Sequence record: OL964749.1
Reading direction: 5' to 3' (one strand)
Length of the DNA stretch: 37,063 nt
From: Escherichia phage T7
In this document: piece by piece, positions 1 through 37,063 of the stretch
Layout: the number at the start of each line of letters is the position of its first letter
How positions within the stretch are numbered: position 1 is the first letter of the stretch
Made by a program: the position numbers and the translations under genes
Notes under the pieces: model-generated
Told to the model about the DNA's origin: nothing
Seen by the model: the letters and a program-made list of their open reading frames with translations, nothing else
Databases searched by the model: none

Positions 1-150
1 CTCACAGTGTACGGACCTAAAGTTCCCCCATAGGGGTACCTAAAGCCCAGCCAATCACCTAAAGTCAATGACCTTGAGGGTTCCCTAAGGGTTGGGGATG
101 ACCCTTGGGTTTGTCTTTGGGTGTTACCTTGAGTGTCTCTCTGTGTCCCT
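1..150. repeat. Left terminal direct repeat (TR) of a T7-type genome; identical copy at the right end
   Basis: Bases 1-150 recur exactly at 36914-37063; sequence matches the T7 terminal redundancy (CTCACAGTGTACGGACCTAAAG...). Confidence 0.95.
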
Positions 151-345
151 ACCTGTTACAGTCTCCTAAAGTATCCTCCTAAAGTATCCTCCTAAAGTCA
201 CCTCCTAACGTCCATCCTAAAGCCAACACCTAAAGACCCATCAAGTCAACGCCTATCTTAAAGTTTAAACATAAAGACCAGACCTAAAGACCAGACCTAA
301 AGACACTACATAAAGACCAGACCTAAAGACGCCTTGTTGTTAGCC
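151..345. repeat. Left-end array of short CCTAAAG-containing repeats (concatemer junction region)
   Basis: Repeated 12-13 bp units such as CCTAAAGTATCCT (165-177 and 178-190), CCTAAAGTCACCT, CCTAAAGACCAGA, as in the T7 left end. Confidence 0.8.
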
Positions 346-366
346 ATAAAGTGATAACCTTTAATC

Positions 367-431
367 ATTGTCTTTATTAATACAACTCATTGTCTTTATT
401 AATATAATCATTGTCTTTATTAATACAACTC
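367..431 (+). repeat. Tandem triplication of a 21-22 bp unit (ATTGTCTTTATTAATACAACTC) spanning the upstream half of promoter phiOL
   Basis: Copies at 367-388, 389-409 (variant AATATAATC) and 410-431; only the third is followed by CACTATAAGGAGAG. Confidence 0.85.
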
Positions 432-443
432 ACTATAAGGAGA
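421..443 (+). promoter_or_regulatory. T7 RNA polymerase promoter phiOL (left-end replication/packaging-associated promoter)
   Basis: TAATACAACTCACTATAAGGAGAG matches the T7 promoter consensus over -17 to +6 except two positions; predicted +1 near 438. Confidence 0.8.
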
Positions 444-494: not shown

Positions 495-531
495 TTGACT
501 TAAAGTCTAACCTATAGGATACTTACAGCCA
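495..531 (+). promoter_or_regulatory. Strong early sigma70 promoter A1
   Basis: -35 TTGACT (495-500), 17-bp spacer, -10 GATACT (518-523), start near 531; matches the known T7 A1 sequence. Confidence 0.85.
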
Positions 532-642
532 TCGAGAGGGACACGGCGAATAGCCATCCCAATCGACACCGGGGTCAACCGGGCGCACAGTGCCTTCTAG
601 GTGACTTAAGCGCACCACGGCACATAAGGTGAAACAAAACGG

Positions 643-9355: not shown

Positions 9356-9377
9356 TAATTGAACTCACTAAAGGGAG

Positions 9378-9378
<1 letters not shown>
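9356..9378 (+). promoter_or_regulatory. T7 promoter phi3.8
   Basis: TAATTGAACTCACTAAAGGGAGA; +1 near 9373. Confidence 0.85.
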
Positions 9379-36912: not shown

Positions 36913-37063
36913 TCTCACAGTGTACGGACCTAAAGTTCCCCCATAGGGGTACCTAAAGCCCAGCCAATCACCTAAAGTCAATGACCTTGAGGGTTCCCTA
37001 AGGGTTGGGGATGACCCTTGGGTTTGTCTTTGGGTGTTACCTTGAGTGTCTCTCTGTGTCCCT
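36913..37063. repeat. Right terminal direct repeat (TR)
   Basis: 36914-37063 is identical to 1-150; the preceding T at 36913 corresponds to the first TR base missing from the window start. Confidence 0.95.

Follow-up and report, generated by a model that had tools for sequence, protein, structure and literature searches.

A microhomology-associated tandem expansion upstream of the phiOL promoter in a laboratory lineage of bacteriophage T7

A three-copy array abutting the phiOL promoter

The DNA analyzed here, referred to below as the window, is a 37,063-nucleotide stretch of Escherichia phage T7 (sequence record OL964749.1), read 5' to 3' on one strand. Close to its left end, a tandem array at 362–432 (plus strand) runs into the T7 RNA polymerase (RNAP) promoter phiOL. 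Its 18-bp core, TCATTGTCTTTATTAATA, is present three times, head to tail and with short linkers in between, and the array reads TAA–core–CAAC–core–TAA–core–CAACTCA; downstream of its end at 432 the sequence runs on as CTATAAGGAGAG. An exact search placed the starts of the 18-mer at 365, 387 and 408, and this is the sole 18-mer that occurs at least three times in the window without also occurring at least three times in reference T7. Core copy 1 (365–382, plus strand) is followed by the linker CAAC (383–386, plus strand), which sequence comparison assigns to the right, promoter-side flank and which goes with a TCA microhomology and a 22-bp unit. Core copy 2 (387–404, plus strand) is followed by the linker TAA (405–407, plus strand), which derives from the left flank, and the resulting junction makes AATATAATC. 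Core copy 3 (408–425, plus strand) is the ancestral copy according to the alignment and adjoins the functional promoter. Tandem Repeats Finder delimited the array to 365–432, with a period of 22, 3.1 copies, 91% matches and a score of 122, and a repeat search returned 28-nt copies at 362–389, 384–411 and 405–432, spaced by 22 and 21 nt. The sequence reads exactly as described in the original prediction, which had recorded a 21–22-bp unit at 367–388, 389–409 and 410–431. The A+T content of the array (362–432) is 80%, compared with 52% for the genome. Its open reading frames are trivial (TTG/ATG mini-ORFs of 20–31 aa only), folding of the array as single-stranded DNA gave no significant hairpin (z = −0.64), and Rfam returned no match for it.

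In reference T7 (NC_001604), the core is present once (ref 375–392) and the +1 position of phiOL is annotated at ref 405, so that alignment gives the window a net insertion of 43 bp. The site is thus the phiOL promoter region and the reference carries a single copy, both as originally stated. A segment that is single in the ancestor is present in three head-to-tail copies in the window, and because the linkers copy the two flanks of that segment, we classify the change as a tandem duplication.

The T7 promoter comprises a binding element from −17 to −5, which is made up of an AT-rich contact (−17 to −13) and a specificity region (−12 to −8), and a melting and initiation element that extends from −4 onward to +6; contacts of T7 RNAP are confined to −17 to −5 (PMC11617373). 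By this anatomy, the array region holds one full T7 promoter. The intact phiOL (−17 to +6) occupies 421–443 on the plus strand, with +1 at 438, as located by promoter search and the annotation of NC_001604, and its segment 421–438 is the sole match in the array region to the 18-nt promoter pattern within three mismatches. Copy 3 supplies the full binding element (421–433) as well as the melting and initiation element, and only this last copy continues into CACTATAAGGAGAG, in agreement with the prediction that a single copy enters the promoter core. Copy 1 contains a truncated phiOL, TAATACAACTCA (378–389, plus strand), which equals −17 to −6, diverges at −5 and is without −5 to +6, while copy 2 is mismatched at −12, −9, −8 and −7. 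Both extra copies continue as TTGTC, and neither contains the melting and initiation element. Hence, one complete phiOL is present rather than two or more, and the promoter as a whole has not been duplicated. Judged from its sequence, copy 1 of the window could be bindable by the polymerase and unable to melt or initiate.

The notion that the upstream half of the promoter has been multiplied is therefore correct for copy 1 of the window, which keeps −17 to −6, but not for copy 2, which is altered, or for copy 1 of the sibling clones, which is broken (see below). From −33 (window 405) onward, the functional phiOL does not differ from wild type. Because this context is native, both the functional promoter and the known polymerase contacts are untouched, and the effect on RNAP binding that had been suggested for the repeats appears overstated.

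One new element was nonetheless detected. In a relaxed scan, the TAA junction was seen to make a perfect sigma-70 −10 hexamer, TATAAT, at 403–408 (plus strand), which is absent in wild type, common to all three siblings and present twice in clone T7_1t3. Its best −35 partner is AATACA at 379–384, which matches the consensus at 3/6 positions with a spacer of 18 nt and brings the total to 9/12 in the window; scores reach 10/12 in T7_1t3, compared with a maximum of 8/12 in the wild-type region, where no site scored 9/12 or more. The upstream DNA is AT-rich, and the early promoter A2 has been deleted. The junction might therefore be read as a new sigma-70 promoter that transcribes the first-entering DNA, either rightward (AATACA-N18-TATAAT) or leftward (TTGTAT-N16-TATATT). 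We consider this improbable: the −35 candidate lacks TTG and falls short of four matches at a spacing of 16–18 nt, and a consensus scan left the 403–408 site below its threshold, calling only A1 (495–523, plus strand) and A3 (643–671). A1, an E. coli early promoter that is also annotated in NC_001604, is retained, and with both strong promoters persisting just downstream, any contribution of the new site would be marginal.

Sibling clones and the genome-reduction background

The window is collinear with NC_001604 and 2,874 bp shorter, a reduction of 7.2%. Exact 100-bp deletions are found at ref 8163, 13340, 14172, 16642 and 39565, gene 1.4 is precisely deleted, and 369 bp of gene 7.7 are gone; the designed 100-bp, whole-gene and gene 7.7 deletions show junction homologies of 0–3 nt. 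CiPGr, a CRISPR/Cas9 procedure for iterative genome reduction, employed "cassette-100" and "cassette-gene" designs (PMC9825161). With a deletion pattern that fits the cassette design, the window is a CRISPR-reduced T7 mutant of the CiPGr work (Yuan et al. 2022), almost certainly clone T7_1t2 (T7_100_t2) of the cassette-100 lineage T7_1t. The size reduction given there for T7_100_t2, the "optimal" mutant, is 7.1% (PMC9825161).

A search with the first 1,200 bases of the window returned OL964748.1 (Mutant Escherichia phage T7 clone T7_1t1) as the best match, with 99.9% identity, followed by OL964750.1 (T7_1t3). With c denoting the core, the reference T7 allele is TAA c CAAC and the window allele is TAA c CAAC c TAA c CAAC, while T7_1t1 (OL964748) carries TAA c CAA c TAA c CAAC and T7_1t3 (OL964750) carries TAA c CAA c TAA c TAA c CAAC. 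Copy number in these short-read assemblies is thus three in the window, three in T7_1t1 and four in T7_1t3, indicating that it is unstable within the lineage. The CiPGr clones T7_10L, T7_20S and T7_5t2 have a single core copy. T7_1t1 and T7_1t3 are without the C at 386, which puts their copy 1 out of register from −9 and breaks it at −9 to −6; consequently, the intact half-site of the window is not a property of the whole lineage. The TAA-type junction was found in OL964748 and OL964750 only, among 50,697 phage records, and the CAA-type junction (the sibling form, with an AA microhomology and a 21-bp unit) was likewise confined to these two among phage records. The CAAC junction of the window, with its single extra C at 386 as assembled, matched no other phage record, and neither junction type had a match in the IMG/VR viral, metagenome or GTDB genome collections.

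An assembly artefact had been named as a concern from the start. The CiPGr study used SOAPdenovo to assemble short reads (PMC9825161), the siblings differ in copy number (three versus four) and in a single C, and the two identical TAA-type units of T7_1t3 are hard to count with short k-mers. Even so, we regard an error of short-read sequencing or de novo assembly in this AT-rich repeat as very unlikely. Novel junctions appear in three assemblies, and a de Bruijn assembler has no means of making up k-mers of this kind; in addition, the array, at about 70 bp, should be shorter than a typical Illumina read, and the two junction types are mutually distinguishable. Because three separate assemblies carry junctions foreign to wild-type DNA, and two sibling clones share the array with the window, the deposited sequences confirm the expansion as genuine and as more than an artefact of one assembly. 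The main text of PMC9825161 mentions deletions and point mutations only, with no reference to duplication, tandem repeats or insertions. The expansion is therefore absent from the account of the source paper yet visible in the deposited sibling genomes.

Further features of the lineage were recorded alongside the array. The T7_1t clones are mosaics, in that each shares different subsets of deletions and single-nucleotide changes with the others, a distribution that indicates recombination inside a mixed population. Point mutations relative to NC_001604 are strongly biased to G>T and C>A transversions. Two mutations in promoter initiation regions are unique to this clone: G>T at ref 22905 (phi10 +2, window 20140) and A>C at ref 27279 (phi13 +6, window 24514).

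Origin of the expansion and precedents at the site

Every junction in the array can be accounted for by its flanks, with the linkers CAAC and CAA matching the right flank and TAA the left flank, and by short homologies at the breakpoints. These homologies are AA (ref 373–374 and 394–395), TCA (ref 375–377 and 396–398) and an imperfect TAA/CAA. There are two junction types and therefore at least two events; T7_1t3 requires at least three. We propose that the array arose by spontaneous mutation in the laboratory T7 lineage T7_1t, presumably through slipped-strand mispairing or through unequal exchange between replicating genomes. Two or more rounds, using 2–3-nt microhomologies (AA or TCA, and an imperfect YAA), would have duplicated a 21–22-bp AT-rich segment that lies directly upstream of phiOL and overlaps the first 8–12 nt of the promoter. 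The outcome would be one intact phiOL behind two promoter-less partial copies, in an array that is itself unstable.

Replicating T7 DNA recombines at very short direct repeats, as is established in T7 genetics, and deletions and duplications between such repeats are said to have been described by Studier et al. in 1979 and by Pierce and Masker. The proposed origin of the array resembles these classical events in being a rearrangement at very short homologies in replicating T7, but it differs in that the homologies measure only 2–3 nt and that copies were gained rather than lost. The window genome also contains four unplanned deletions between direct repeats of 9, 13, 9 and 7 nt. They comprise a 104-bp deletion that removes promoter A2 (9-nt repeats GTCAACCGG; junction at 574–582, plus strand, from the alignment), a 1,480-bp deletion that leaves genes 0.3 and 0.7 fused (13-nt repeat, 1173–1185), a 277-bp deletion that takes away gene 3.8 together with the phi3.8 start (9-nt repeat AAAGGGAGA, 9370–9378), and a 12-bp deletion in gene 7.3 (7-nt repeat, at about 17194). 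The gain of one 13-bp SRL unit and the loss of another, detailed below, likewise fit recombination between short repeats.

The host plasmid of the CiPGr experiments encoded lambda Red (PMC9825161), which may have contributed to the expansion. Two other origins were rejected. CiPGr spacers were designed within genes (PMC9825161), and no gene is annotated before ref 925, which argues against a scar of escape from Cas9; the sequence further suggests that the duplication left the original sequence and the nearest PAMs intact. Compensation for genome shortening was dismissed as well, because 43 bp are negligible compared with the 2.9 kb lost.

Natural relatives of T7 place the array in a wider setting. 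In an alignment of 13 distinct natural Teseptimavirus genomes and contigs, a block CTT-YAATCATTG-TCT (about −18 to −33) that abuts phiOL hardly varies. Its conservation equals that of the promoter, while the upstream SRL repeats and the region beyond +6 vary among these 13 relatives. The wild-type T7 motif upstream of phiOL includes AATCATTGTCTT, and in T7, unlike the natural relatives, three additional bases, TAT, separate the motif from the promoter. Most of the 13 relatives carry one copy of the 13-nt unit of this block, TAATCATTGTCTT, which occurs twice in 13a, WW2 and one IMG/VR contig (one mismatch) and in three perfect copies in Bas104. Alleles with two copies of the motif were seen in about a dozen isolate genomes, and at least 95% of a two-copy motif query was covered in about 16–22 isolate records; a strict pattern of the natural two-copy motif had no match in viral contigs.

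The window contains TAATCATTGTCTT three times, two exact and one with two mismatches, and nowhere else than in the array. The natural arrays of 13a, WW2 and Bas104 are similar to that of the window in their position abutting phiOL, their overlapping sequence, their head-to-tail arrangement and their range of one to three copies. However, they have a 13-nt period and a TAAT microhomology and end at the promoter edge, whereas the window array has periods of 22 and 21 nt and a unit that includes promoter bases, reaching 8–12 nt into the promoter. The laboratory array is thus distinct from the natural 13-nt type.

Two additional observations concern the surroundings of phiOL in these phages. Besides its three upstream motif copies, Bas104 has a long (GA)n run downstream of phiOL, and YpP-Y has a long (GA)n run from about +1 of phiOL. 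A second non-coding block, GCCTTGTTGTTA, lies at window 331–361 (ref 341–371), about 35–45 nt upstream of phiOL; it is invariant in 12 of the 13 aligned natural relatives and differs by one base in WW2.

Experimental evolution provides a second precedent. In an independent T7 experiment with an RNAP of altered specificity, phiOL was duplicated in 4/4 lines (PMC6171733, Genome Biol Evol 2018), and the authors read these duplications as adaptive and tied to phiOL-driven genome entry (PMC6171733). The phage, the promoter region and the setting of laboratory evolution are the same as here. In that work, however, the promoter itself was duplicated, mutant promoter copies included, whereas the window has one full promoter and extra copies that extend at most from −17 to −6. 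Taken together with the natural arrays, these duplications make the region upstream of phiOL a known hot spot of copy-number change, both in nature and in experiments.

Functional reading of the left end

The original prediction also proposed consequences for packaging and replication initiation. Such a reading would have the expansion alter left-end functions, either a secondary origin at phiOL or the processing and packaging of concatemers. The location is suggestive, since the array sits between the terminal repeat and SRL repeats on one side and phiOL and the AT-rich region on the other, and the lineage also has terminal-repeat deletions, a mutated class II signal and changes in SRL units. 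On the other hand, phiOL transcripts never cross an insertion that lies upstream of phiOL, the AT-rich origin-like segment downstream of phiOL is unaltered, and a shift of 43 bp is small. A literature search for a packaging (pac) role of the segment upstream of phiOL found nothing specific. We found no link between the array and either process, and consider an effect of this kind highly unlikely.

The mutated class II signal is a change in its own right. The only ATCTGTT heptamer of T7 is altered to ACCTGTT at 151–157 (ref 161–167, plus strand) by a T-to-C substitution at window 152. ATCTGTT is the core of the class II T7 RNAP pause and termination signal at the concatemer junction and is intolerant of any base change (doi 10.1101/2021.01.11.426313). 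The ACCTGTT variant was found in 19 phage records, all of them CiPGr clones, and in no other T7 record, a distribution which suggests a wide spread, in the CiPGr experiment, of phages that have lost the pause signal of the concatemer junction.

Other alterations lie nearby. Two losses affect both terminal repeats (window 1–150 and 36913–37063): a single G at ref 34, and 8 bp, CCTTCGGT, at ref 71–78, the latter taking out the center of an inverted repeat (TCAACC-TTCG-GGTTGA). An independent deletion of 18 bp, at about ref 99–116, is seen in the terminal repeat of clone T7_5t2, so that this element became shorter more than once in the evolved lines. The SRL array (window 163–235), which is built of 13-bp CCTAAAG-type units, has gained CCTAAAGTATCCT and lost ACACCTAAAGCCT, with its net length unchanged relative to reference T7.

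phiOL is a weak promoter, and an adaptive role of the array in cis deserves consideration. The half-site or the motif copies might raise the occupancy of T7 RNAP or the use of phiOL and thereby speed genome internalization or early transcription, and such a gain might make up for the lost promoter A2 and for other left-end changes. Copy 1 of the window preserves −17 to −6 and with it both the specificity region (−12 to −8) and the AT-rich contact; this half-site precedes the real promoter by 43 bp, or roughly four turns of the helix. However, the extra copies, being without −5 to +6, cannot initiate and could just as well serve as decoys, and the half-site is inconsistent among siblings, copy 1 of T7_1t1 and T7_1t3 being out of register from −9. 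The near-invariance of the upstream motif in nature speaks for a role, and because the duplicated segment holds this motif, the segment may be functional and a change in its dosage may not be neutral; against this, the −33 to +6 context of the functional promoter is unchanged. Parallel duplication of phiOL in four lines with a poorly matched RNAP, linked to genome entry (PMC6171733), is also in favor, as is the deletion of A2 in the T7_1t lineage. Conversely, the junctions of the array occur in no other lineage among the T7 records searched.

Population and phenotype data bear on the same question. The array is present in 3/3 clones recovered after fast-killing selection. Its presence in all three sequenced T7_1t clones despite their mosaicism implies a high frequency after that selection and fits either selection or hitchhiking. 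T7_100_t2 was reported to kill cultures 10% faster (P = 0.05), to grow at 0.9 doublings per hour below wild type, and to be outcompeted by wild type, making up <20% of the population in competition (PMC9825161). With faster killing, slower growth and a lost competition, no benefit over wild type is visible in T7_100_t2, which is less fit overall and in this respect supports near-neutrality of the array. On balance, we judge the adaptive explanation unlikely, though it is the one among the alternatives that we would take most seriously.

We therefore favor, with fair but not high confidence, a spontaneous and unstable expansion that was mediated by microhomology, took place at a natural hot spot and has little or no effect. 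Because phiOL is native from −33 onward and the array creates no complete element, its effect should be small or nil, and it is probably near-neutral. Most likely, it hitchhiked as the lineage came to dominate the population, on a left-end haplotype that all three T7_1t clones share and that also carries the A2 deletion, the 0.3–0.7 deletion and the terminal-repeat changes. The CiPGr paper reports neither the expansion nor the other unplanned changes of the left-end haplotype, each of which could have a share in the phenotype ascribed to genome reduction.

The expansion belongs to a known class of events: the phiOL region has been duplicated in evolved T7, copy number at the site varies in nature, and T7 DNA recombines between short repeats. 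A more speculative thought is that CTT-YAATCATTG-TCT is a candidate cis-element with tunable copy number, such as a site for a phage or host factor in phiOL-dependent entry or in the left-end secondary origin. We hold this to be doubtful; if it were true, it would explain the one to three copies found in nature, the recurrent laboratory duplications of phiOL and the dominance of a three- to four-copy allele in T7_1t. More generally, the region upstream of phiOL is a site of recurrent copy-number change in natural and laboratory T7-like phages, and it draws attention to a strongly conserved motif. If copy number affects the use of phiOL or genome entry, the array would be a simple regulatory knob; if not, it would be an ordinary slippage scar.
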